NCBI GenBank assembly: GCA_008080735.1
Contig: SHMW01000024.1
Location: 1 to 50,400, forward strand
From: Promethearchaeota archaeon
GTDB taxonomy: Archaea; Asgardarchaeota; Lokiarchaeia; Sigyniarchaeales; SOKP01
Direction of reading: 5' to 3'
DNA: 50,400 nucleotides
Position 1 is the stretch's first letter; the number at the start of each line of letters is the position of its first letter. Positions 6,143 to 24,892 of this stretch are shown here, piece by piece. The notes under the pieces were generated by a model. It saw nothing but the letters and a program-made list of their open reading frames with translations, had not been told where the DNA came from and made no database searches. Both the position numbers and the translations under genes were made by a program.

Positions 6143-7384
6143 ATGGAACCTAGGCCAAACAATACAACCTTTAAACATTATATATGTTTTTGGATTGGAC
6201 AAATCTTCTCATTATTAGGATCTTCAATTGTCCAGTTTGTTATACCAATATGGATAACGATTATATATCAGGATGAGGTTCTTACTTCTTTAGTTTATTT
6301 TGTTTCATTTATACCTCCTATAATTATTAGCCCAATAGCAGGAGTTTTTGCTGATAAAATAGATAGAAAGAAAATGATTGCATTTGCAGATACTTCTCAA
6401 GCAATTACAACTCTTGCGTTAATTATATTGTTTATGACTAATACTGTTGATTTTGCTGCTATATTGATTGTAAATTTTCTAAGATCTATTTTCCAACATA
6501 TTCATTTTCCTCCTTCGAATGCAATTATCCCTACTATGGTTCCAGAAAAGCATCTTAGTAGAGTTAATGGAATTAATTATCTTTTTACAAGTTTTATTGG
6601 GATTGTAGGACCAATAGTAGCTGGAGTTGTTATTTTCTTTTTCCCAATCGAAATTGCTTTATGGATTGACATTATTACATTCCTAATTGCTATTCTTCCC
6701 TTAATTCTTATAAAAATTCCAGATATCAGAAAAAAGGAAGATGAAAGTCTGAATATCTCCAAATTTAAAAATGATATGAAAGAAGGTATGCAAACGATAC
6801 GAATTATTCCCGGATTATTAGTTTTGTTATTTTTAGCAACATTTGCTAACTTTTTTGAGCAGCCCCTTCAAACCTTAATGTCCAATTTTATCCTTGTTGA
6901 TAATTCTGGAACTGAATTAATTTATGCTATTGTCTCAGGATCGATGAGCCTAGGAATACTAGGTGGTGCAATAATCGTCACAATCAAAAAAGAATGGGAT
7001 AGAAAAGTTCTAATAATTGTTTTTGGAATTCTTTCAGGTAATTTTGGTTATTTGGTAGTCGCCTTATCCCCATTTCAATTTTTCATTATGATGATAATTG
7101 GAGGATTCATCTATGGAATATTTTTACCCGTTGTAAATACTATGTTTTTCACACTCATTCAGACTAAAGTTCCAAAGGATAAACAAGGAAGGGTGATTTC
7201 AATTGCAATCGTAATATCCGCAGGAATTACTCCCATTTCAGTAGTTATAGCCGGTCCTTTATCACAACTTATCGGTATCTCCACATTATGGTCTTTATAT
7301 GCTATTTTTGGAATAATTATCTCTCTTATCATATGGTTTTCCACAGATTTAAAACGTATTGACAGATTTGAAAAAAACAACTAA
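6143..7384 (+). CDS. MFS transporter (MefA/DHA3-like efflux)
   Basis: FWIGQIFSLLGS, motif A GVFADKIDRKK, about 12 TM helices. Confidence 0.9.
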   Translation: MEPRPNNTTFKHYICFWIGQIFSLLGSSIVQFVIPIWITIIYQDEVLTSLVYFVSFIPPIIISPIAGVFADKIDRKKMIAFADTSQAITTLALIILFMTNTVDFAAILIVNFLRSIFQHIHFPPSNAIIPTMVPEKHLSRVNGINYLFTSFIGIVGPIVAGVVIFFFPIEIALWIDIITFLIAILPLILIKIPDIRKKEDESLNISKFKNDMKEGMQTIRIIPGLLVLLFLATFANFFEQPLQTLMSNFILVDNSGTELIYAIVSGSMSLGILGGAIIVTIKKEWDRKVLIIVFGILSGNFGYLVVALSPFQFFIMMIIGGFIYGIFLPVVNTMFFTLIQTKVPKDKQGRVISIAIVISAGITPISVVIAGPLSQLIGISTLWSLYAIFGIIISLIIWFSTDLKRIDRFEKNN

Positions 7385-7439
7385 ATCAGAAATCCCAAAA
7401 CTAATCTTAAAATGGATATTTACTTTTAAAATTTTATCG

Positions 7440-7613
7440 ATCAATTCACATAATGCATAGATCTTGAGGTTTGACCTTTCGGATCTTTTTCAATTGGTTT
7501 TTTCTTCTCTCTTCAGCCTTCTTATATCTTCTTTTCTTGTACTTCAGTTACAAAGTTAGTCTCGGAATATTTTATATTTTTCAATATAGATCTATTCAAT
7601 CCTAATTTAAATA
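7440..7613 (-). pseudogene. Internally deleted remnant of a third thioesterase copy (promoter plus 3' end)
   Basis: 7456-7568 aligns to 8839-8951 with substitutions and indels; 7590-7613 matches 6038-6061. Confidence 0.75.
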
Positions 7614-7759
7614 GACTGAATTTATCTACTATTAAATAGTTAATTTATTAATAATTCCAGCTGAATGTGTGAATTATAGATATTAAAGTAAAATAAAACA
7701 AGAATCAAATTGAGATGGTGGAAATATTGGGTCAATTCTTTTTTAAGAGAAGAAAAAAG

Positions 7760-8635
7760 CTAGATAATAGCTCCCGCGATTATATGCACGTCTTGCTTTA
7801 TTGCTAACTCAAAATTAGCTCGATTTATCTCCAAGCATGCTAATATTAATCCATCGTATTCCTTTTCTGTTAATTTATTGTATAATTCTCCCTTTTTTTG
7901 TAAATCAAAAATATCGCGATTATCAGCAGTTGATTTAACCTCCATCAAAAAGGTCTTTCCGTCTTTAATTACTATATCAACATCAGTACTATAATTTTCA
8001 AAGTATACTTCTCCTTGGCGATCTATCAAAACTTGACGAGCGATATCGCTTTTTTCTATATTTTCTTGTAATAATTTATCACTGAGCATATTTAAAATCA
8101 AGGTTTCTAACTTTTCTCCCCCTCGAGAACTAATTGAATAAATAGCAATTCGTAATGAATCTCTATCCTTTCTCGCTTCTGTAAAGCCTGTATTTACTAA
8201 ATTAATTAGGCTTTCAAATCGTTTATCCACTTGTTCGAATCGTTTATTCACTTGTTCGAATCGTTTATCCACTTGTTCGAATCGTTTATTCACTTGTTCG
8301 AATCGTTTATCCACTTGTTCGAATCGTTTATCCACTTGTTCGAATCGTTTATCCATTTGCTCGAATCGTTTATCCACTTGTTCGAACCGTTTATCCATTT
8401 GCTCGAATCGTTTATCCACTTGCTCAGTCCGTTTTTCCATTTGGTCTATTATAAATTCAAATCGCTTATCCATATGCTCGAATCGTTTATCCATAGAATC
8501 GGTAAGTTTTACAATATCATCATGAGTTGCAACTACTCCCGATAGAGCACTAATGATAGCTCCCTTTACCGTATCATTTTCCCGAATTAATTTTGGAAGA
8601 ATCTTTAATAATTCGTCAATATCGATCTTGCTCAT
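7760..8635 (-). CDS. Coiled-coil heptad-repeat protein with C-terminal PD-(D/E)XK nuclease-like domain (DUF3782-like)
   Basis: DKRFEQV repeats followed by TDVDIVI...LMEVKS. Confidence 0.75.
   Translation of the reverse strand: MSKIDIDELLKILPKLIRENDTVKGAIISALSGVVATHDDIVKLTDSMDKRFEHMDKRFEFIIDQMEKRTEQVDKRFEQMDKRFEQVDKRFEQMDKRFEQVDKRFEQVDKRFEQVNKRFEQVDKRFEQVNKRFEQVDKRFESLINLVNTGFTEARKDRDSLRIAIYSISSRGGEKLETLILNMLSDKLLQENIEKSDIARQVLIDRQGEVYFENYSTDVDIVIKDGKTFLMEVKSTADNRDIFDLQKKGELYNKLTEKEYDGLILACLEINRANFELAIKQDVHIIAGAII
8212..8424. repeat. Intragenic 21-bp tandem repeat, about 10 units, degenerate extension to about 8493
   Basis: Unit CGAATCGTTTATCCACTTGTT and variants, encoding (D/N)KRFEQ(V/M). 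Confidence 0.95.
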
Positions 8636-8816
8636 ATCTACTATCTATAAGGATATGTACTTATTTAAATCATCTCGATTAAGTTCTACATAACTCTATT
8701 TAAAAAATATGTACCCATATTATTGCGAATTTTCCTTTTTAGAATAAGACAATTTGAGAAATGATAGTATCATCCTTATTTTCCTAATCATAAAAAGAAA
8801 AAAAAGGTAATTTATT

Positions 8817-9323
8817 TTAATTCTCGATTCTCACCATACATGGACCTTGAGGTTCGATCTTTCGGATCTTCTTCAATCGATTTTTTCTTCTCTCTTCAGC
8901 TTCCTTATATCTCCTTTCTTGTTCCTCAGTTTCAAGGATCAGTCCCGGAATCCTTGATGGATTATCATTTTCATCTAAACCAACATATGTAAGATAGGCT
9001 GTTGCAACATGTGCCTTTCGACCCGTTATTAGGCATTCCGCATCGACACTTATTCCAATTTCCATCGAACTTTTCGAAACATAGTTTACTGAACCTTTCG
9101 CAATCACTACATTTCCGATGAAAACAGGTGAAAGGAAGTCTAATCTGTCGACAGAGGCGGTTACACAATTCATGTGAGTATGTCGCGAGGCCACGATCAA
9201 TGCACAACTGTCAATTATGCCCATAATCACTCCCCCAAATACATTTCCCGCGGGATTGGCGTTTGGGGGCATCATGATCTGAGAAATCTCTACTTGAGAA
9301 TCTGAAACTGGTTTTGGTTCCAT
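8817..9323 (-). CDS. Acyl-CoA thioesterase (hotdog fold), copy B
   Basis: ANPAGNVFGG, HTHMNCVTASVD, SSMEIGI; close paralog of 5463..6002. Confidence 0.9.
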   Translation of the reverse strand: MEPKPVSDSQVEISQIMMPPNANPAGNVFGGVIMGIIDSCALIVASRHTHMNCVTASVDRLDFLSPVFIGNVVIAKGSVNYVSKSSMEIGISVDAECLITGRKAHVATAYLTYVGLDENDNPSRIPGLILETEEQERRYKEAEERRKNRLKKIRKIEPQGPCMVRIEN

Positions 9324-9569
9324 ATTTTTTTACCTTCAATATTTTATATTATGAATAGTTGATGCTGATGAATATGAAAAATCTTTGGGTAATGTTAGAT
9401 AAAAAAAGTAATCTGATCTGTTAAGGATTCTTGAAATCCTAGTTTAAGAAGGTTTAGAAACATGTGAATAGTTATGAATTTATATTCACTATAATCAGAT
9501 TTTTATTCTTTAAATTAAAATTAAGATTATTTATTCACAACTTAAATATTCATTAAAAATATAAAAAGG

Positions 9570-10073
9570 TTGAAAAAAATGAGTTTTAGAGAAACATACG
9601 AAGCAATTAAAGGAGATCCTACGAAAGGAGAAAAAAACTTCAATGTAAAATGTGAAATGCTTCCAAAAGGAATGCAATGTAAGGCCACGATGGGAGCATC
9701 CAATCACGAATTTGTTATTGACGCTCCAGCAGGATTAGATGGTACAGATGAAGGTCCAAGTCCTTTATTAGCGATTTTAGCTTGTATAGGATCTTGTTTA
9801 ATAGCGGTTACACGATTTTGGGCAAAAATTATGGACATTGAGATTGAAGAGATGACTGTGTTTTCCAGAGGAAAAATCAATTTATCTGGAATTTTCGGAT
9901 TAGACGATGATGAATTACCAGGCTACAAATCCCTCGAGCCTGTAATTCGCATCAAAGCGAAAGCGCCCAAAGAAAAAGTCCAAGAAATGATGGACCAGGT
10001 TCTTACACATTGTCCTGTCATTACTAACTTCGAGGGGGCAACGCCGATTGAACCTAAGGTTCAAATTCAATAA
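9570..10073 (+). CDS. OsmC/Ohr-family protein
   Basis: IDAPAGLDGTDEGPSP, ACIGSC and HCPV two-Cys pattern; ATG at 9579 is an alternative start. Confidence 0.9.
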   Translation: MKKMSFRETYEAIKGDPTKGEKNFNVKCEMLPKGMQCKATMGASNHEFVIDAPAGLDGTDEGPSPLLAILACIGSCLIAVTRFWAKIMDIEIEEMTVFSRGKINLSGIFGLDDDELPGYKSLEPVIRIKAKAPKEKVQEMMDQVLTHCPVITNFEGATPIEPKVQIQ

Positions 10074-11180: not shown

Positions 11181-12026
11181 TTATTTTAGCGGATAATTTG
11201 GTTTTTTCTTTTTAAAAAAAGCTGTAGATGCCTCAATCATATCCTGTGAAGAAAACGCAAGGATGATTGAACTGTTTTCAAATTGAAGTACGTTATTGAG
11301 AGAGGGAGAGTCTAATGTTAAATTAATGGCTCGTTTTGTGAGACGCAATCCTAAAGGACTTTTTGTTAGCATTTCTTCTGCAATTTCAAGCCCTTTTTCT
11401 AATAGGGCTTCTTTATCAACCAAGTCTGATACTAGCCCCAGCTCTTTAGCTTCTTCTCCAGTTAAAGCTTTTCCAGTATACATAATTTCAGCAGCTTTAG
11501 ACATTCCAATAAGTCTGGGGAGAAAATAACTTGACCCCATATCAGCGCCCGTGAGTCCGATATTAATCGATGCATTGATAAATTTTGCCTCAGGAGTAGC
11601 GATCCTTATATCCGAAGCTAATATGAATCCCAACCCACCCCCGGCAGCAGATCCATGGATTAACGCAATTATTGGTTGGCTTATTTCCCGAATTTTCATA
11701 ATTAATTCGCTGATTCGCCATTGATGATAGATTTTTCTCTTTAAAGGCTCTGGAACTTCTAAATAATAAAATTGATCATATCCTTCAGGCTTCTTTTTCG
11801 AATTTAGAATTAATCCCTCTTGAAGATCCGTGCCTGCGCTAAAGATACGCCCTTCTGCTCTTAGGATGACCACTCTACAGTCTAGATTAGTTGAAAGGTT
11901 GTCCAAAAGGTCGTGAAGTTCCTCTTCCATTTGAAATGAGATTGCGTTTAGTTTATCGGGTCTATTAAGCGATAAAATACCAATACCATTCTCTCTTAGC
12001 TCAAATTTTATAGTTTCATATTCCAT
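11181..12026 (-). CDS. Enoyl-CoA hydratase/isomerase (crotonase) family
   Basis: LNRPDKLNA, FSAGTDL, GSAAGGG, LASDIRIA, LPRLIG. Confidence 0.92.
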   Translation of the reverse strand: MEYETIKFELRENGIGILSLNRPDKLNAISFQMEEELHDLLDNLSTNLDCRVVILRAEGRIFSAGTDLQEGLILNSKKKPEGYDQFYYLEVPEPLKRKIYHQWRISELIMKIREISQPIIALIHGSAAGGGLGFILASDIRIATPEAKFINASINIGLTGADMGSSYFLPRLIGMSKAAEIMYTGKALTGEEAKELGLVSDLVDKEALLEKGLEIAEEMLTKSPLGLRLTKRAINLTLDSPSLNNVLQFENSSIILAFSSQDMIEASTAFFKKKKPNYPLK

Positions 12027-12258: not shown

Positions 12259-13377
12259 ATGTTCAAACAAAAGAAGGGGATATATCACAAATTAAGGGAC
12301 CATCTTGACAATATGCCCATAGGATATCCGGAAACGAAATCTGGAGTCGAAATAAAGATATTAAAAGCATTATTTACACCTCAACAAGCTTATATCGCGA
12401 CTTTTCTCAATTGGAAATGGCAAGACGTGGAAACCATATACCAATCTTTTCCGAAGAGAAAAAACATCTCACTTCGGGATTTCGAACACTTACTGAGTGA
12501 AATGGTGAAAGATGGCCTTATTAACTTTAGGCATAAAGCCAAAAAGAAACAATATGCAAACGCCCCCTTAGTAGTGGGTTTCTACGAATATCAATTAAAA
12601 CGATTAAATAAGGAACTAATTAAGGATGTTTTTCATTACATAAAAGAAGCGTTTGGCTACGAAATTATGAGAACCAAGATTTCCCAACTTCGCACCGTGC
12701 CAATCGAACAGAGTATAGAATCCAAGATAAATATATCCACATATGATAATATCCGGAAGATTTTTGACACCGCGATCCCACCATTTGCTGTAACTGATTG
12801 TATCTGCAAAATTGCTACTGATATGATCCAAAGACCATGTAAAGTAACTAAAAGGAGGGAAATATGTATGGCCGTTGATTGGATGGCTCAATTATATATT
12901 GATCAAGAATGGGGACGAGAAATATCTAAAAAAGAGGCTTTAGATATCCTTAAACAAAATGAAGAGGATGGGTTAATCTTAAATGTAGAAAATACACAAG
13001 AATCATTGTTCTTTTGTGGATGTTGTACTTGCTGTTGCGGCATTACTGCTGGTTTGAAACACCTCCATAATCCGTCAAAACTCGCCCAAAATAATTATTA
13101 TGCACTTATAGATCTGGATTCTTGTGTAGGATGCGGCGCTTGTATCGAACGATGTCAAATGGAAGCAATATCCCTTAAAGATGATAAGGCCACGATAAAG
13201 GAAAAAAGGTGTATCGGGTGCGGAAACTGTGTCTTCATTTGTCCTTCCAATGCCATCTCACTCAGATCAGTAGAGGATCATATGGTCCCTCCTGAAACCT
13301 CCGAACAACTTTATAAATCCATTTTGCTAGAAAAAAATCGGCTGAAAGAGAAGTACAAAAAATTCAAATCAATTTAG
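12259..13377 (+). CDS. 4Fe-4S dicluster protein with N-terminal wHTH-like region and Cys-rich middle domain
   Basis: CICK, FCGCCTCCC, CVGCGACIERC and CIGCGNCVFICP motifs. Confidence 0.88.
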   Translation: MFKQKKGIYHKLRDHLDNMPIGYPETKSGVEIKILKALFTPQQAYIATFLNWKWQDVETIYQSFPKRKNISLRDFEHLLSEMVKDGLINFRHKAKKKQYANAPLVVGFYEYQLKRLNKELIKDVFHYIKEAFGYEIMRTKISQLRTVPIEQSIESKINISTYDNIRKIFDTAIPPFAVTDCICKIATDMIQRPCKVTKRREICMAVDWMAQLYIDQEWGREISKKEALDILKQNEEDGLILNVENTQESLFFCGCCTCCCGITAGLKHLHNPSKLAQNNYYALIDLDSCVGCGACIERCQMEAISLKDDKATIKEKRCIGCGNCVFICPSNAISLRSVEDHMVPPETSEQLYKSILLEKNRLKEKYKKFKSI

Positions 13378-13420: not shown

Positions 13421-14395
13421 CTAAATTATAACTTTAAGGATGGTTTCCGATTCATATAATTTTTCGGGGATATAACTAATTTTGTTATTGGAAATATCTA
13501 AAACTTCGAGATGGCTCAATTTGAACAGATTTTTTGGGATGGTTTCGATAAGATTGTTGCTTAAATCCAATTTTCTTAGATAGGATAGATTTTCAATCCA
13601 ATCCGGTATGTTCATTATATGATTATTTGAAAGATTCAACTCTAAATGATTTTTTATATTCCAACTTTTAAAAATTAAAGGGAAACTTTTTAGCTCGTTT
13701 GAAGCCAGATTCAAGTATTTTAGTGATTTTAAATTGGTTAAATAATGGGGTAGCTTCTTAAGATAGTTATAGCTCAAGTCTAAAAGCTCTACTTGCGGTA
13801 ATTGAGAAATTGATTGAGGCAACTTCTTCACTAAGGAGAGGCTTAAACCCCTGATAGATTTGTCTTTCACGAGCATTATGGTGGTTGGAGGGATAAATAA
13901 AAATGTCTCTTGGTTTTCATTCCAGATATTAACACTTTCAATTGTCTCTGAAACATCCAATATAACACCTAAATCTCTACTTCTTAATTTAAGCTTAGAT
14001 GATATGCGTTCCATTCTATCTTTAAATTCGTTAAGCAAAATGGGAGCATCAATCTTGTTTAATTGTTTTCTAATAGATTTTAGAACCAAGAAAGATGCTT
14101 CATTTCTGATAGTCCACAGTATTACATTGATTGCTTTGTGTCTAAAAAATCGAATTAAGGATTCTACAGCTTTGGCCCTGATTTGGTCAAATTCATCGCT
14201 AATAACACAATATTCTAGAGCCATATAAGTTTTGTCGGATTTAGGCGCTATAGAAACTATTATTTTGAGTGATTTCAATCTTATTTTAGGGTGATAACTA
14301 TTTTCGATTAGAATTAATAATAATTCTACAGTTTTTGAGAGAGAATATCTGTTATTTTGGTAGTTATTATAAATTATATCGGGAGAGAACTCCAT
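13421..14395 (-). CDS. Leucine-rich-repeat protein with N-terminal HEAT-like repeats
   Basis: Five LxxLxLSxNxL/IxxLP repeats; helical N-terminus with IR..A..SL pattern. Confidence 0.85.
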   Translation of the reverse strand: MEFSPDIIYNNYQNNRYSLSKTVELLLILIENSYHPKIRLKSLKIIVSIAPKSDKTYMALEYCVISDEFDQIRAKAVESLIRFFRHKAINVILWTIRNEASFLVLKSIRKQLNKIDAPILLNEFKDRMERISSKLKLRSRDLGVILDVSETIESVNIWNENQETFLFIPPTTIMLVKDKSIRGLSLSLVKKLPQSISQLPQVELLDLSYNYLKKLPHYLTNLKSLKYLNLASNELKSFPLIFKSWNIKNHLELNLSNNHIMNIPDWIENLSYLRKLDLSNNLIETIPKNLFKLSHLEVLDISNNKISYIPEKLYESETILKVII

Positions 14396-18599: not shown

Positions 18600-21566
18600 C
18601 TATCTCGAATGGAATTCTGTTCTCTCAATGATTTCTCGCTGCATGTTTTCATTTATTTTAGTAAAATATGCGTTATACCCCGAAACTCGGACTATTAACC
18701 AACGATAGTCTTCGGGATGTTCCATCGCGTTTCTGAGAGTATCGGAGGTCACGATGTTAAATTGCCATTGCATTCCACCCAAATCAATAAAACTCTGAAC
18801 ATAACTTGTAAAGAGATCTAGGGTCTGGGTATGAGAATCGGTCGCGTGTGGTACTAATTTTACGTTAAAGGATGCATTATTCGGCATTTTAAGATGTTCT
18901 AAACTCGCAATGGTCTTGATATTTTGAAGTAAAAGATCTTCTCGTCCAGGGGCGGGTGTAAGTCCATGAGTGAGAGATTTTCCTGCCTTTCTTCCAGATG
19001 GTAAAGCACCAGTTAACATTCCGTATCCAACATGATAACTAATTGACCAATAGCCGACTAAGTAATCCCCTCCCCGATAGTTCTTAGTTTTTTTGTATTC
19101 CCTGTAGCAAAAGTTAATGAGATCGTCCGCAATTTCTTTAGTTCCAGGTTCATTAGAACCAAATTTATCCACTTGTTCAATTAAATTTAATAGCTGGGCT
19201 GAACCATTTTCAAAATTATCTTTTAATGCATACAGCAATTTTGAAAAATCTAATTCCTTTTTTTTATAAATCAAATCTCTAATTACAAGTAAGCTATCAA
19301 TTACATCTGTTAAAGCAACCAAGGCAACTCCAGATGTATTATAAATTGCACCTCCTTGGATAAGATCTTTACCTTTTTCTAGCGGACCTTTATAAAAAGC
19401 GGATAATAAGGGCGTTGGATGAATATATTGGTGGGTTTTTCCCAAATAGTTATTAATTTCTATAGATTTCTGGATTACATAGCTTAGTTGAGTTTTATAT
19501 GCTTTATAAAAATCCTCAAATGTGGGAAATTTATCCAAAGATGGTAAGCCTGTTTCTGGGCCCACTTGTTCTCCTATTAAAGGGTGGATTCCGTTGTTTA
19601 GAGCCATTTCAAGCGGGGCAACAAGATTTAATAACATCGCATTCGTATGGCCGTAATGCTTACCCACTATAGTAGGTTCCACACATCCAGTTGCAGCCCA
19701 ATCACGAGCATCTTCAACTGAAAACCCTTCATTTACTAAAGCCTCGATCATAGCATTGTCATTATGGATAGAAGGAGATGAAACCATATTTACATTTACT
19801 TCCACTAAACGCCGTAAATATTCTTCCGAATTTATACCAGGATAATACCTGGCATTCATATTTGGGTCTTGGAAGCATAACATCTCATTTGTTTTTAGGA
19901 TGATAAAACTCATATCACAAACCGCATTATTACCCTCCCTATCCACGCCACCTACGGTAACAGTATCATCAGAAGAACTCCCTCCGAAAAGTTTATTTCC
20001 AATGGAGGGTACCAAGGGATCGTGGTCGTTTATCCTTAAAAATAATGATCCTATAAGTTCAATGGCATTATGTATAATTTGATTTCGTTTTTCGGGTTTT
20101 TTTGCTTGTTTAATATCATGGATAAAGTATGGCTGAAGCATTTGATCTAACCGGCCAATTGACATCGCTGAATTCGCGTTTTCACAATGGATACAAACAA
20201 AGCTTGTCCAGAGTGATTGTATAGCCTCATGAAGTGTCTCGGCGGGTTTCGCGGGGACTTTAGCGCATATTCGTGAAATTTCTTTTAATTCTTCAATTCG
20301 TTTGGCTTGATCGGGGTGTTTTGGATCTAATTTTTCTGCCATTCTCTTTGCTTCTTCACTCAGATTGTTAGAATAGCTTAAAACTCCTTCAATAGCAATT
20401 TGAATCGCTTTATAGAAATTTTTCTTATTGGCTGAGTCTGCCTTTTTCTCTTTTTCAAACGCTTCTGCTTTGATTTTCTCTAACCCTTTTCCCAAGATCA
20501 TAGGAAATCCCGGAACTGTGTGAGAAATTGCATTATTTTTCATCATAAAATAAAATACCCAACACTCCTCGAGCCATTGCGAAACAGGATCATCAAACTC
20601 CGCACGGCAATATTCCCTTACGTTTCGTTCCATCCAAAACGGAAAAACCTCTTGGCTTAAAATGTCCGCATCCTTAGGATCTATATCGTTGGGATTTAGT
20701 TTACGGTTTCCTATACTCCGCAACTCAGGCCAGACCGCAGTACCTATTAATTCAGGATAAATTGGCACGCCTACTTCTTTTGAAGTAGTTGAACCAGCAA
20801 TAAGATGATCTTTATGAATAATTGGTACTTTATTACTCATAATATAATTTACGGCTCTTGCTTGTCTTAATTCTGGATCGATTGGATTATCCTCTGGATC
20901 AGTTTCAAACCCATTTTCTATATGGTATTCTGTAAGTAATTTTGCGCGCTCGATACAAATTGCGGGTTTTAATGCTCTGCGCCTTGCTTTTAGGAGTTTT
21001 ATACGAGGAAAGTCATCTATTGAATATCTGGATAAATAAGGATCTTCTAGAAATTGTACATTATCAACTTTTCTATCCAGACTTTCATTTTCAAGTTTTC
21101 TCTTCTCCTCTCCTCGTAGGATTTCTTCGATTGAGCAGATTAATTGATTTTCTGGACCTTTATAATCTTTTATTTTTGCGCCCGTTGCTACAGTTGTGAG
21201 GTATGAAAATTTTGTGAGATAAGTCATGTTTCCTTTATAAGACATTCGATTGTCGAGCAAATATTCAAGTGTCTCGTCCGCACTCTTGTTCCAAGTTTCA
21301 GCTAAGGTTGCTTTATCTTTATAAAAAATAGTAATGTTAGGATCCTCAACCTTTCCTTCTCCTGTGCTGATCTCTCCATTATCAAAAATTAAATAAAAAT
21401 CAAATTCCCCATCACGAGTGCTAAATTGATATTTAGCATTAAAAATAAAGCCTGTTTTCTGATTTATAATTTCTTTGCGGTAGCGTTTTCGGCTAAAAAC
21501 CACATTTAATAGAGAAAGTGATTGTTTAAAGCGTTCTAATGATTCATCAATTGTTAATTCGTTCAT
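18600..21566 (-). CDS. Glycyl radical enzyme (PFL superfamily) with N-terminal SCP2-like domain
   Basis: Cys loop WAATGCVEP (C628), glycyl motif IVRVSGYNAYF (G963), SIGRLDQ; residues ~28-125 show an SCP2-like pattern. Confidence 0.92.
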   Translation of the reverse strand: MNELTIDESLERFKQSLSLLNVVFSRKRYRKEIINQKTGFIFNAKYQFSTRDGEFDFYLIFDNGEISTGEGKVEDPNITIFYKDKATLAETWNKSADETLEYLLDNRMSYKGNMTYLTKFSYLTTVATGAKIKDYKGPENQLICSIEEILRGEEKRKLENESLDRKVDNVQFLEDPYLSRYSIDDFPRIKLLKARRRALKPAICIERAKLLTEYHIENGFETDPEDNPIDPELRQARAVNYIMSNKVPIIHKDHLIAGSTTSKEVGVPIYPELIGTAVWPELRSIGNRKLNPNDIDPKDADILSQEVFPFWMERNVREYCRAEFDDPVSQWLEECWVFYFMMKNNAISHTVPGFPMILGKGLEKIKAEAFEKEKKADSANKKNFYKAIQIAIEGVLSYSNNLSEEAKRMAEKLDPKHPDQAKRIEELKEISRICAKVPAKPAETLHEAIQSLWTSFVCIHCENANSAMSIGRLDQMLQPYFIHDIKQAKKPEKRNQIIHNAIELIGSLFLRINDHDPLVPSIGNKLFGGSSSDDTVTVGGVDREGNNAVCDMSFIILKTNEMLCFQDPNMNARYYPGINSEEYLRRLVEVNVNMVSSPSIHNDNAMIEALVNEGFSVEDARDWAATGCVEPTIVGKHYGHTNAMLLNLVAPLEMALNNGIHPLIGEQVGPETGLPSLDKFPTFEDFYKAYKTQLSYVIQKSIEINNYLGKTHQYIHPTPLLSAFYKGPLEKGKDLIQGGAIYNTSGVALVALTDVIDSLLVIRDLIYKKKELDFSKLLYALKDNFENGSAQLLNLIEQVDKFGSNEPGTKEIADDLINFCYREYKKTKNYRGGDYLVGYWSISYHVGYGMLTGALPSGRKAGKSLTHGLTPAPGREDLLLQNIKTIASLEHLKMPNNASFNVKLVPHATDSHTQTLDLFTSYVQSFIDLGGMQWQFNIVTSDTLRNAMEHPEDYRWLIVRVSGYNAYFTKINENMQREIIERTEFHSR

Positions 21567-21876: not shown

Positions 21877-23223
21877 ATGTCTAAACCAGTAAGTATTTAT
21901 GAGAAATACTTTAAAGATCCTAAACGAGAACCTGTTCTTATCGATTATGTTCGAACACCTATAGGCAAAAAGAGAGGGACAATAGTTCGTCATCGAGGGG
22001 ATGATTTAGTAGTACATTGCTATAGAACTTTATTAGACCGAAATGATATAGATCCGAATCTAATTGGGGATTCAATCGTATCGTGTAATTCTCAAATAGG
22101 GGATTGTGCTCTTGATTTAGGTAGGACGTGCGCTTTGGCAGCTCATTTACCCGTCAGTGTACCGGGGATGTCTTTAAACCGTCAATGTGCTAGCGGAGCT
22201 CAAGCAGTCATGCTAGCATGGCAAGCTATCGCTTCTGGGATCAACGATTGTGTGATCTGTGGGGGAGTAGAAGTTCAGAATAGATATGCAATAATGTCAG
22301 ATACTTATGTATTTGATGAAGATAAAGGTAGACCAATAATGGTTCCCCCTAACAAAAAAATTACGACTCATCCCGAAGTCATTGAAAGCGCAAAAAAATA
22401 TGACTCTCAATTCGCAGGGCAGATTAACTCCGCTCATGTTATGGGAAAAGTGTGGATGGAAAAAGCAGGAATAACCCGTGATGAGTATAGAGAAGAAGTT
22501 GATCAATTATCCTTACGATCCCATCAAAAAGCAATTAATCATTGGGAGGAACGGGGAAGAGAGATAGAACCCATCTGGTGTCCGAACTTAGATGATGAAG
22601 GAAATGCAATTTTGGATGAGAATGGTGAGATTGCTGAAAATTCCGAGTTGTCTGTGCTCACAGAACGAGATGAGACGCCAAGACCAAGTACGTCCATGGA
22701 AAAATTATCCAATTTAAGAACAATCGTAGGCAGAAGGAAATATGCATTCTTAACTGCGGGTAATAGTTGTCCCACCAGTGATGGAGGGGGGGCACAGTTA
22801 TGGATGACTCGTGGACTTGCCGAGGAATATGGATTACGCCCACGCGCGACTATTCTAAATTTTGCCGTAGTAGGAACAGATCCCGTTTTACAATTGACTG
22901 GACCAATTAAGGCTATGCCAGAAGTATTAGAACGTGCCAATATGTCATTTGATGATATGGCATATATCGAAATAAATGAAGCATTCAGTTCAGTGATCTA
23001 TGCATGTTGTTATGATTTAGGCTTAGACTGGCGTGAAGAGCGATTTAATGCATGGGGTGGTGCGATTGCATTAGGTCATCCTACTGGAATGACGGGTTTA
23101 AGGTTAATTGGAACCAATCTCCACCAGTTAGAGGATTCTAGTGAAGAGTATGCTATTTCATCAATGTGTGTAGGTCTTGGGATGTCAACTGCAACCATTC
23201 TTAAAAATGAAAACCCTAAATGA
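21877..23223 (+). CDS. Thiolase (acetyl-CoA C-acyltransferase, degradative type)
   Basis: VRTPIGK, NRQCASG, INEAF, GGAIALGHP, MCVGLG. Confidence 0.95.
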   Translation: MSKPVSIYEKYFKDPKREPVLIDYVRTPIGKKRGTIVRHRGDDLVVHCYRTLLDRNDIDPNLIGDSIVSCNSQIGDCALDLGRTCALAAHLPVSVPGMSLNRQCASGAQAVMLAWQAIASGINDCVICGGVEVQNRYAIMSDTYVFDEDKGRPIMVPPNKKITTHPEVIESAKKYDSQFAGQINSAHVMGKVWMEKAGITRDEYREEVDQLSLRSHQKAINHWEERGREIEPIWCPNLDDEGNAILDENGEIAENSELSVLTERDETPRPSTSMEKLSNLRTIVGRRKYAFLTAGNSCPTSDGGGAQLWMTRGLAEEYGLRPRATILNFAVVGTDPVLQLTGPIKAMPEVLERANMSFDDMAYIEINEAFSSVIYACCYDLGLDWREERFNAWGGAIALGHPTGMTGLRLIGTNLHQLEDSSEEYAISSMCVGLGMSTATILKNENPK

Positions 23224-23485: not shown

Positions 23486-24892
23486 ATGAAGAGAAAAGGA
23501 TACTTCCCTTCAATACTTCTCCTTTTGGTAATTTTAGCTATCCCTCTTGGAGGAATATTAACGGGAAATGACATATTAATGAGAACACAAAACTTGACTA
23601 ACGCTTCCATAAAAACTTCAGCTACAGAATTCCATCAAAAATGGTTCGGAACTTGGGGCGGGAATGAGGAAGAATATGGAGACGGTGTGGCAGTCGCCAG
23701 CCCGGGAAGAATATATATCACCGGTCAAACGGGAAGTTTCGCAAGTCTCCACTCTGACGCTTTTACCGCAGCCTATAATAAAACAGGAGGAGAAACATGG
23801 TATAGCAGGTGGGGAAGTCAATATGGTCGTTTTTATGACGCTCGAGCAAAAGATATCGCATTAAACGATACTGGCTATATTTTCATCACTGGCAAAGACA
23901 ATAGAAGTGGAGATTATAATGCTTTTTTGGTATGTTATGATGATAAAGACGCGGATGAACCTTTATGGAATAAAACGTGGGGTACAAGCGAATATGAAGA
24001 GGCTTTCGGTATAGCTCTCGATATGAATAATAATATCTATATTACAGGAAAAACCTATAATCAAACTGATGATGATTACGACATTTTTATAGTCAAGTTT
24101 AACAATACGGGGGAATATCAATGGAATACAACATGGGATGGAGGAAATGATGATATGGGATATGGAATTGCCCTTGATGCCACGGGAAATATTTATATCG
24201 CCGGAAAGACCAATAGATCAGTAAGTGAGGATTTCGACGCTTTACTTCTTAAATTCAACAATTCAAACATTTATCAATGGAATGAAACTTGGGATGGAGC
24301 AAATACCAATGATGCAGCTTATGACTTAGTTATCGATTCTGCAGGGAATCTTGCCATAACTGGAGTCATTGATAATGATCTCTTCCTTTCTAAATATGAT
24401 GAGGAAGGAAATGAACTTATAATAGAGACTTGGCGTGGAGATGGAATCGATGTAGGATATGGAATTACCCTAGATAATTCAGACAATTTTTATGTAGCAG
24501 GAAAAACGAATAGTTCTGGTTCTCAAGATTTCGATGCATTATTGGTTCAATTTTCTAATTCAGGAACTAGGCTCCTAAATACTACTTTAGGGGGAGATAA
24601 TGAAGATATTGCGTACGATATTGCTGTCGATGATTCTTCTGGATATATTTATCTTACTGGAGGTACATCAAGCTTTTCACTTTTAACGGACACCTCATCT
24701 GTTTTTATTACGGAATATGAAATCATTGACGACGGAGGAAATGGAGGAGGTGGTGATGATACTAATGGTATTCCCGGTTATTCACCTCTCTTATTAATCA
24801 GTATTATGGGATTACTCGCATTAATCATCGGTTTAAGATTCTCAAGCAAGAATGGCAAAAGATTTTCGAATAAGGTTCGGAGGATTCATTAA
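23486..24892 (+). CDS. Secreted SBBP-repeat beta-propeller protein with Loki-CTERM-type anchor
   Basis: Signal peptide; about 7 repeats WxxTWxG..D....IALD..GNIYIxG; Gly/Asp linker, IPGY, TM helix, basic tail; many NxS/T sequons. Confidence 0.88.
   Translation: MKRKGYFPSILLLLVILAIPLGGILTGNDILMRTQNLTNASIKTSATEFHQKWFGTWGGNEEEYGDGVAVASPGRIYITGQTGSFASLHSDAFTAAYNKTGGETWYSRWGSQYGRFYDARAKDIALNDTGYIFITGKDNRSGDYNAFLVCYDDKDADEPLWNKTWGTSEYEEAFGIALDMNNNIYITGKTYNQTDDDYDIFIVKFNNTGEYQWNTTWDGGNDDMGYGIALDATGNIYIAGKTNRSVSEDFDALLLKFNNSNIYQWNETWDGANTNDAAYDLVIDSAGNLAITGVIDNDLFLSKYDEEGNELIIETWRGDGIDVGYGITLDNSDNFYVAGKTNSSGSQDFDALLVQFSNSGTRLLNTTLGGDNEDIAYDIAVDDSSGYIYLTGGTSSFSLLTDTSSVFITEYEIIDDGGNGGGGDDTNGIPGYSPLLLISIMGLLALIIGLRFSSKNGKRFSNKVRRIH

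Follow-up and report, generated by a model that had tools for sequence, protein, structure and literature searches.

Gene, active site and catalytic class

The first 50,400 bp of contig SHMW01000024.1 of a Promethearchaeota archaeon (assembly GCA_008080735.1), the whole of which is referred to as the window in this study, carry a gene for an oxygen-sensitive glycyl radical enzyme (GRE) that is fused at its N terminus to a domain of the SCP2 fold. The gene (protein P0001) lies at positions 18600..21566 on the minus strand, as do all of its elements described below, and its open reading frame (ORF) is intact and stop-free over 988 amino acids (aa). Pfam recognized a PFL-like ten-stranded barrel core at residues 188-849 (19020..21005; PF02901, E 5e-162) and a glycyl radical domain at residues 867-969 (18660..18968; PF01228, E 2e-21). 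The first 187 residues fall outside all GRE models. They begin with the SCP2-fold domain (residues 1-130; 21177..21566), which was identified from an AlphaFold2 model and fold comparison, and continue with a linker (residues about 131-175; 21042..21176) that is poorly conserved in the alignment and in which pLDDT drops below 50 at residues 133-143 and 155-175.

The catalytic motifs were located by codon-by-codon translation and by alignment to solved GREs. The Cys loop, G627-C628-V629-E630-P631 (19674..19688), holds the CXE motif and has one Cys, as opposed to the CC pair of PFL, while the radical glycine is G963 in the sequence RVSGY (18678-18680). These are the single-Cys GCVEP loop and the intact glycyl motif that the original prediction had reported, and the N-terminal pattern on which it drew (YQF, FYLIFDNG, PNITI and KGNMTYLTKF) was likewise found in the translated sequence. 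When aligned with glycerol dehydratase (GDH), C628 falls on C433 and E630 on E435, and N642, the last residue of G639-H640-T641-N642 (19641..19652; alignment to 1r8w), takes the place of D447. The cap helix contains the motif AISH349T (20517..20531; HMMER alignments to 5fay, 9ht9 and 2f3o), in which H349 is aligned with D216 of CutC and with a His of Archaeoglobus fulgidus PFL2; we take it to be the equivalent of H164 of GDH. An invariant polar loop, F527-GGSSSDD534 (19965..19988), brings D533 into alignment with F395 of CutC.

Across 55 archaeal and bacterial orthologues, 319 of the 988 positions are invariant when one exception is allowed. These 55 sequences all keep C628, V629, E630, P631, H349 and G963, together with a polar set made up of S530-S532, D533, D534, H637, H640, T641 and N642. 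The CXE motif has been found to define the GRE eliminases, with nothing else being strictly conserved among them (PMC7077986).

Among solved structures, that of A. fulgidus PFL2 (2f3o, E 5e-116) is the closest in sequence, followed by CutC, HpyG, glycerol dehydratase, propanediol dehydratase and HypD (E 1e-101 to 1e-104), all of which are CXE enzymes. The fumarate-adding enzymes MasD (E 1e-57) and TutD (E 7e-54) rank near the bottom of the full-length relatives in the PDB. At the same time, the window GRE scores below the curated cut-offs of all NCBIfam equivalogs for characterized GREs, including those of CutC (TIGR04394, 419.9 bits vs a cut-off of 1050) and HypD (NF043068, 414.8 vs 1100), and it also falls below the cut-off of the PFL2-3 subfamily (TIGR01774, 560.7 vs 678.2). 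These scores, which for the equivalogs are far under the cut-offs, and the replacement of D447 of GDH by N642 and of D216 and F395 of CutC by H349 and D533, separate the protein from the characterized GREs for small substrates, which is in line with what the original prediction had supposed.

Several known enzymes are close enough to be compared directly. Glycerol dehydratase of C. butyricum (1R8W, E 3e-103) and propanediol dehydratase (5I2A, E 3e-101) have the same barrel, glycyl radical domain and GCVEP loop, and their activases are of the ferredoxin-insert type, as is that of the SCP2-GREs. However, the window enzyme has 187 additional N-terminal residues compared with glycerol dehydratase, and W445-H446-D447 of the latter is changed to H640-T641-N642. 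A. fulgidus PFL2 (PflD, 2F3O), the only archaeal PFL-like GRE that has been studied structurally, shares the ISH motif of the cap helix, but it is 776 residues long, has no SCP2 domain and reads SGQATNQ where the SCP2-GREs read GGSSSDD. CutC (5FAU) and HypD (6VXC) have CXE eliminase chemistry in common with the family (E about 1e-101 to 1e-104), and CutC yields an aldehyde; its choline-binding residues D216 and F395, both of which bind the trimethylammonium group, are the ones that correspond to H349 and D533.

A divergent relative of the SCP2-GREs (P0222, 985 aa) reads GAMQP in place of GCVEP, and has thus lost the catalytic Cys and Glu while keeping the radical Gly and the cap-helix His. Judged from its sequence, it may be a pseudoenzyme or an enzyme with a different chemistry.

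The SCP2 domain and its predicted docking on the core

That the N terminus belongs to the SCP2 fold is a result of structure modeling. The Pfam SCP2 model (PF02036) matches residues 43-122 of the window GRE at 15.1 bits (E 0.031), which is below the cut-off of 21.3, and a relative, P0120, is likewise below it with 18.2 bits. Searches of PDB chains with residues 1-190, and with a profile built from 42 sequences, returned no match, so that SCP2 could be identified by fold comparison only. For this, an AlphaFold2 model of residues 1-195 was made from an alignment of 43 homologues. Over residues 1-130, block-mean pLDDT was 71-95 (mostly 83-95). The chain runs through two helices, four strands, two more helices, one strand and a long helix, after which the low-confidence linker (about 133-175) begins.

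With this model, the top matches of Foldseek in the PDB were exclusively SCP2 folds at a probability of 1.0: UbiJ-SCP2; A. fulgidus SCP2 (AF1534); the SCP2 domains of the alkylsulfatases SdsA1 and Pisa1; and animal, yeast and insect SCP2. Similar results were obtained with VIA-align, which gave Z 12.1 for human SCP2 (rmsd 2.5 A over 110 residues), Z 11.4 for YjcS and Z 10.6 for palmitate-bound mosquito SCP2. The range over nine SCP2 structures was Z 9.5-12.1 (106-114 residues), as compared to about Z 6 or less for non-SCP2 folds. By the agreement of model, Foldseek and VIA-align, residues 1-130 are an SCP2 fold with a five-stranded sheet and a C-terminal helix, as had been proposed earlier from the sequence pattern.

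A profile of this domain alone retrieved 341 proteins; additional GRE fusions are among them, as are many proteins of about 150 aa in which the domain stands alone. Six proteins (P0112, P0115, P0118, P0119, P0123 and P0147) have the same SCP2-like domain in a divergent form, which matches the profile at E 1e-14 to 1e-25. One of them, P0147, is a 766-aa pentapeptide-repeat protein in which Pfam sees the pentapeptide repeats only. The other five are standalone proteins of about 150 aa; none of them had a match in Pfam, and hence they provide no sequence bridge to PF02036. The standalone proteins and P0147 look like an SCP2 subfamily that has gone unrecognized.

The SCP2 domain is predicted to be docked onto the catalytic core, beyond being merely tethered to it. 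Residues 1-140 and residues 160-988 were given to the predictor as two partners, each with a separate alignment, and ipSAE was 0.91, 0.91 and 0.90 in three runs, while the best of three controls reached 0.00. The same mark is reached by 58 of 80 solved complexes and by 2 of 110 mismatched pairs, although these counts are only a rough guide when one's own alignments are used. The runs had at least 84% of their contacts in common, and the pLDDT of the partner was at least 85. A sequence search of the PDB found no structure of an SCP2-GRE, and it is therefore unlikely that the score stems from the memory of a solved complex.

On the SCP2 side, the predicted interface is formed by residues 31-42, 95-106 and 111-126 and by the beginning of the linker, and the best-conserved residues of the domain (E32, N35, F42, L104, G112 and F120) are within or beside these segments. 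On the core side, it is formed by residues 276-288 (W279-PEL), 304-318 (FPFWMERNVRE), 334-337, 521-525 and 663-666. The contacts with the lowest predicted error involve the surface segments W279-PEL and F308-PFWMERNVREY (20610..20732). W279-PEL and FPFWMERNVRE are kept in every SCP2-bearing GRE, the distant clades included, but are absent from the four GREs of the same genome that have no SCP2 domain, and such a restriction is the pattern expected of a real interface.

Residues 334-337 are at the start of the cap helix that bears H349. In other GREs, this helix is part of the conserved substrate channel and its residues bind the substrate (PMC13450708). We infer from the model that the SCP2 domain would sit over the mouth of this channel. 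A comparable arrangement is known for BSS-beta and MASS-beta, which cover the substrate channel of their GREs and gate the access of hydrophobic substrates (PMC13450708). In contrast to the SCP2 domain, these modules are separate small Fe-S proteins of another fold and belong to fumarate-adding enzymes, whereas no Fe-S motif is present in the SCP2-GRE. As for the fusion of an SCP2 fold to an enzyme, the alkylsulfatases SdsA1, Pisa1 and YjcS, and UbiJ, have it fused or attached to an enzyme for an amphiphilic or isoprenoid substrate, even though the catalysis is unrelated (a metallo-beta-lactamase fold and the Ubi complex, respectively) and the SCP2 part is C-terminal or separate rather than N-terminal.

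Distribution of the family and partner genes

A word-indexed search yielded 97 proteins of about 987 aa with the fusion, widespread in Asgard metagenomes, and a scan of one genome per species found it at 65 loci. The archaeal hosts are Promethearchaeota, Hod-, Hermod-, Odin-, Thor-, Freya- and Jordarchaeia. The bacterial hosts are Desulfobacterales, Desulfosudaceae and other Thermodesulfobacteriota, among them the cultured Desulfatibacillum alkenivorans DSM 16219. A FastTree tree, with the non-SCP2 GREs of the window genome as its root, places all SCP2-GREs in one clade, and inside it a single Asgard group nested among bacterial sequences. This topology would agree with a fusion that took place once and with a single transfer between the domains.

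For the gene context, reference proteins were compared with the 65 loci by tblastn with a 50% coverage filter. A GRE activase lies immediately downstream on the same strand at 30 of the 35 archaeal loci with enough downstream sequence. An aldehyde:ferredoxin oxidoreductase (AOR) is found within 6 kb at 17 of the 27 archaeal loci for which 3 kb or more of downstream sequence is available; it is orthologous at 50% identity or more in 16 of these 17, and its identity was confirmed by Pfam (AFOR_N and AFOR_C). A crotonase-family enoyl-CoA hydratase (ECH) is encoded within 6 kb at 8 of 15 bacterial loci. Single loci combine these functions: the operon at L070 reads activase-ECH-GRE-AOR; those at L076 and L081 read ECH-acyl-CoA dehydrogenase-GRE, the dehydrogenase being a 602-aa protein with Acyl-CoA_dh_C; and at L082, acyl-CoA synthetase, ECH and AOR are upstream of the GRE. 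We read the linked functions as a pathway of aldehyde formation, aldehyde oxidation, CoA activation and beta-oxidation. The gene partners thus differ from those of glycerol dehydratase, which is accompanied by 1,3-propanediol dehydrogenase.

In one Asgard genome (locus L053, in the same record as L022), the GRE-activase-AOR unit is bracketed by two copies of a gene pair that encodes an FAD-dependent oxidoreductase together with an FNR-like [2Fe-2S] protein (7016-9816 and 15850-18647 in L022 coordinates).

In the window, the ECH gene (P0002; 17580..18446, minus strand; Pfam ECH_1, E 6e-50) begins 153 bp downstream of the GRE gene, and a second crotonase of the same subfamily (Pfam ECH_1) is encoded at 11181..12026, also on the minus strand. 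Ten GRE-linked crotonases of Desulfobacterota were extracted, and nine of them gave scored matches against the 4.1-Mb genome of the window. P0002 was the best match in the whole genome for eight of the nine, with the second copy next, and the second crotonase was the best match of the ninth, which comes from L080. The scores of the window crotonase were 146-186 bits, while those of crotonase paralogues outside the window did not exceed 96 bits. On these scores, the crotonase is a specific partner of the GRE, orthologous across archaea and bacteria.

The order GRE-ECH-GNAT-MFS, with no activase, is common to the window and its nearest relative, L024. The next relative, L025, has the order GRE-activase-ECH, and its GRE is 84% identical to that of the window in the N-terminal 195 residues and 82% in the core. 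The window copy has lost the adjacent activase and AOR and kept the orthologous crotonase. No trace of a decayed activase was detected in the 153-bp GRE-ECH spacer or in the corresponding 502-bp spacer of L024. A scan for sigma-70 promoters and terminators performed no better than on shuffled sequences, the model not being applicable to an archaeon.

The original prediction had noted that the window holds no GRE activase and that it was to be sought elsewhere. On the contig of the window, radical-SAM matches were sub-threshold only, and four activases were found elsewhere in the genome, on contigs C4, C23, C7 and C84. Of these, the one on C7 most resembles the cognate activase of the nearest orthologue (57% identity), and by this sequence likeness it is the likely activator of the window GRE. 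An unlinked AOR on C16 shares 59% identity with the cluster-type AOR. The assembly is a metagenome bin, for which contamination is estimated at 7%. It encodes six GREs, all under the equivalog cut-offs, and one of these, on C7, is a second SCP2-GRE (P0102, 991 aa), whose identity to the window enzyme is 52% over the core and 31% over the SCP2 domain. In its cluster (L089:12152-18689), a canonical SCP2 that stands alone (144 aa, Pfam E 3e-12) precedes the SCP2-GRE, which is followed by the activase and a short-chain dehydrogenase.

On C84, a 1091-aa single ORF (L014:706-3981) joins a GRE activase (residues about 15-252; TIGR02494 at 213 bits, above the cut-off) to a full PFL-like GRE (265-1088); we know of no described fusion of an activase with a GRE.

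Several other genes of the window and its relatives deserve mention. A thiolase (acetyl-CoA C-acyltransferase; 21877..23223, plus strand; Pfam Thiolase_N and Thiolase_C; TIGR01930, 316 vs 240.55 bits) is divergent from the GRE gene, but since it was found as a neighbor at the window locus only, its link to the GRE is weak. A 372-aa protein (12259-13377, plus strand) has a C-terminal double [4Fe-4S] motif as its sole recognizable feature, and its homologues lie no more than about 7 kb from the SCP2-GRE in L024 (72% identity), L053 (45%) and L066-L068 (about 30%). The genes of lipid metabolism are flanked by a leucine-rich-repeat protein (13421-14395, minus strand) and an SBBP beta-propeller repeat protein (23486-24892, plus strand), proteins of kinds that Asgard genomes typically contain and that probably have nothing to do with the GRE. 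Outside the window, a crotonase beside an SCP2-GRE on a contig labeled Thermodesulfobacteriota (L074:3137-3970) is 76.5% identical to a gene of the Lokiarchaeon bin (C69:7526-8356); either one of the contigs has been mis-binned or the transfer was very recent.

Proposed function and its alternatives

We favor, as a probable though by no means secure reading, that the SCP2-GRE works as a radical 1,2-eliminase of the CXE type on an amphiphilic alcohol which is held by the SCP2 domain, and that its aldehyde product is passed to beta-oxidation. In this mechanism, the docked SCP2 domain, beside the channel-lining cap helix, would hold the hydrophobic part of the alcohol. A radical-SAM activase would install the radical on G963, and C628 would then abstract a hydrogen from the carbinol carbon; E630 would deprotonate the hydroxyl group to give a ketyl radical, upon which the neighboring C-O or C-N substituent would leave and an aldehyde would be formed. 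In the relatives, the aldehyde would be oxidized by the co-encoded AOR, activated with CoA, and degraded by the crotonase, acyl-CoA dehydrogenase and thiolase. In the window genome, the GRE would have to borrow an activase, for which that of C7 is the best candidate, and would also have to use the unlinked AOR orthologue on C16.

The original prediction had proposed an eliminase for hydrophobic substrates, and both parts of it have gained support. The assignment to the eliminases is supported indirectly by the invariance in 55 members of both CXE and the cap-helix His and by the AOR that follows GRE and activase in 17 of 27 archaeal loci. A hydrophobic substrate is suggested because the SCP2 domain is predicted to be docked, because genes of beta-oxidation are linked to the GRE in both domains of life, and because the Desulfobacterota hosts are degraders of lipids and hydrocarbons. 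We infer the aldehyde product, the lipid-like nature of the substrate and the order of the pathway from the linked genes and from the alkylsulfatases and UbiJ, whose SCP2 domains serve as an analogy.

A number of observations weigh against this reading. The moiety that reaches the thiyl radical at C628 is probably a polar head group, as the invariant residues around it are polar. A more hydrophobic cap helix had been considered as an argument for a greasy substrate but was dropped after comparison with the non-SCP2 paralogues, since the hydrophobicity of this helix in the window GRE is not above that in the non-SCP2 GREs of the genome. The CXE motif is also kept by the more recently described GRE isomerases, which give ketones rather than aldehydes (PMC13450708). 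Gene linkage is variable, AOR being absent from 10 of the 27 archaeal loci, and the gene context is uninformative at the D. alkenivorans locus and at one Asgard locus (P0056). Moreover, acyl-CoAs are also among the ligands of SCP2 domains, whose role in some proteins may be purely structural.

A structural role is central to the alternative that we regard as unlikely but the most serious, namely that the enzyme dehydrates or splits a small soluble compound such as a short diol, polyol or amino alcohol, and that the SCP2 domain carries no substrate but serves as a structural or regulatory cap, which would gate the channel or stabilize the glycyl radical domain in the manner of BSS-beta. It would suit the polar nature of the invariant active-site residues, and all characterized CXE enzymes use small polar substrates (PMC13450708). 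A short aldehyde would explain the AOR linkage equally well, the best-conserved SCP2 residues are at or next to the predicted interface rather than at an obvious ligand site, and channel-gating accessory subunits are known (PMC13450708). However, the recurring neighbors are a FadE-type acyl-CoA dehydrogenase of 600 aa, acyl-CoA synthetase, a dedicated crotonase and thiolase; a canonical standalone SCP2 gene adjoins the C7 paralogue; and the best fold matches are ligand carriers, including palmitate-bound SCP2 and the substrate-recruiting domain of an alkylsulfatase. The crotonase, as the partner that is conserved across domains and the last one left beside the window GRE, could also be taken to mean that another CXE radical reaction (isomerization or ring opening) is catalyzed, or that the substrate is bound to CoA, with the SCP2 domain binding an acyl-CoA and the crotonase taking the product. 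That GRE isomerases keep the CXE motif (PMC13450708) would agree with this notion, as would the binding of acyl-CoAs by SCP2 proteins. Against this stand the AOR in most archaeal loci, which points to a free aldehyde, and the fact that no GRE is known to use a CoA thioester as its radical substrate (PMC13450708); we consider such a reaction improbable.

The least probable of the explanations that were weighed, with a very small chance of being right, is an enzyme of the alkyl- or benzylsuccinate synthase type (X-succinate synthase), in which a hydrocarbon is added to fumarate and the SCP2 domain delivers alkanes or alkenes. It is the main rival taken from the literature: Asgard GREs of this general kind have been annotated as Ass/Bss homologues near A. 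fulgidus PflD (Hermodarchaeota paper, PMC8163825), and the closest solved relative of the window GRE, 2f3o, is this same PflD, for which the function is debated between glycerol dehydratase and MASS (PMC13450708). A carrier domain and an alkene-degrading host would both suit a hydrocarbon substrate, and SCP2 could mimic the channel-covering subunit of BSS or MASS (PMC13450708). On the other hand, MasD (E 1e-57) and TutD (E 7e-54) are much more distant than the CXE enzymes (1e-100 to 1e-116), the CXE Glu and the cap-helix His are invariant, and the conserved partner AOR would have no role after fumarate addition. In addition, the genes identified next to the GRE in the window and at 58 loci encode activase, AOR, ECH and acyl-CoA dehydrogenase, rather than small Fe-S beta or gamma subunits, although no search specific for small ORFs was made.

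Within lipid-like substrates, a speculative and quite unlikely version, though a chemically reasonable one, is the idea raised by the original prediction of an oxygen-independent lyase for glycerol-ether lipids, in which an alkylglycerol, archaeol or core lipid of the GDGT type would be held by the SCP2 domain. The free carbinol would be attacked and the neighboring hydroxyl or alkoxy group eliminated to give a 3-alkoxypropanal; AOR would then make the acid, and, after CoA activation, the crotonase might free the second alcohol by beta-elimination. This version gains a circumstantial point from D. alkenivorans PF2803T, which is a model producer of alkylglycerol ether lipids (PMC5552659, PMC11150832), and it would fit the limitation of the family to Asgard archaea and to Desulfobacterota that make ether lipids, such as this strain. 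The observations would suit diols, amino alcohols or polyol lipids just as well. A literature search on anaerobic glycerol-ether cleavage found no enzyme.

Full-text literature searches found no paper in which a glycyl radical enzyme is linked to SCP2 or to a sterol carrier protein. A review of the superfamily of June 2026 considers archaeal GREs an open gap and mentions neither SCP2, nor a lipid-acting GRE, nor an ether substrate (PMC13450708). All characterized PFL-like GREs are bacterial and have small polar substrates. New in this study are: the orthology of the crotonase across domains; the linkage to acyl-CoA dehydrogenase and acyl-CoA synthetase in bacteria; the covariation of the interface motifs with the SCP2 domain; and the second paralogue with a standalone SCP2.

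Our results argue against the published annotation of Asgard GREs as alkyl- or benzylsuccinate synthases where these are members of the SCP2-GRE family. As the family is present in the cultured D. alkenivorans DSM 16219, its function is open to experiment. If the ether-lipid version were true, the route would be the first by which ether membrane lipids are broken down anaerobically. With a lipid carrier built into the enzyme, with its conservation from Asgard archaea to sulfate reducers and with its links to aldehyde oxidation and beta-oxidation, such a GRE would take glycyl-radical chemistry to substrates that are membrane-type or otherwise insoluble in water, and it would also be a concrete candidate for the anaerobic turnover of recalcitrant sediment lipids.

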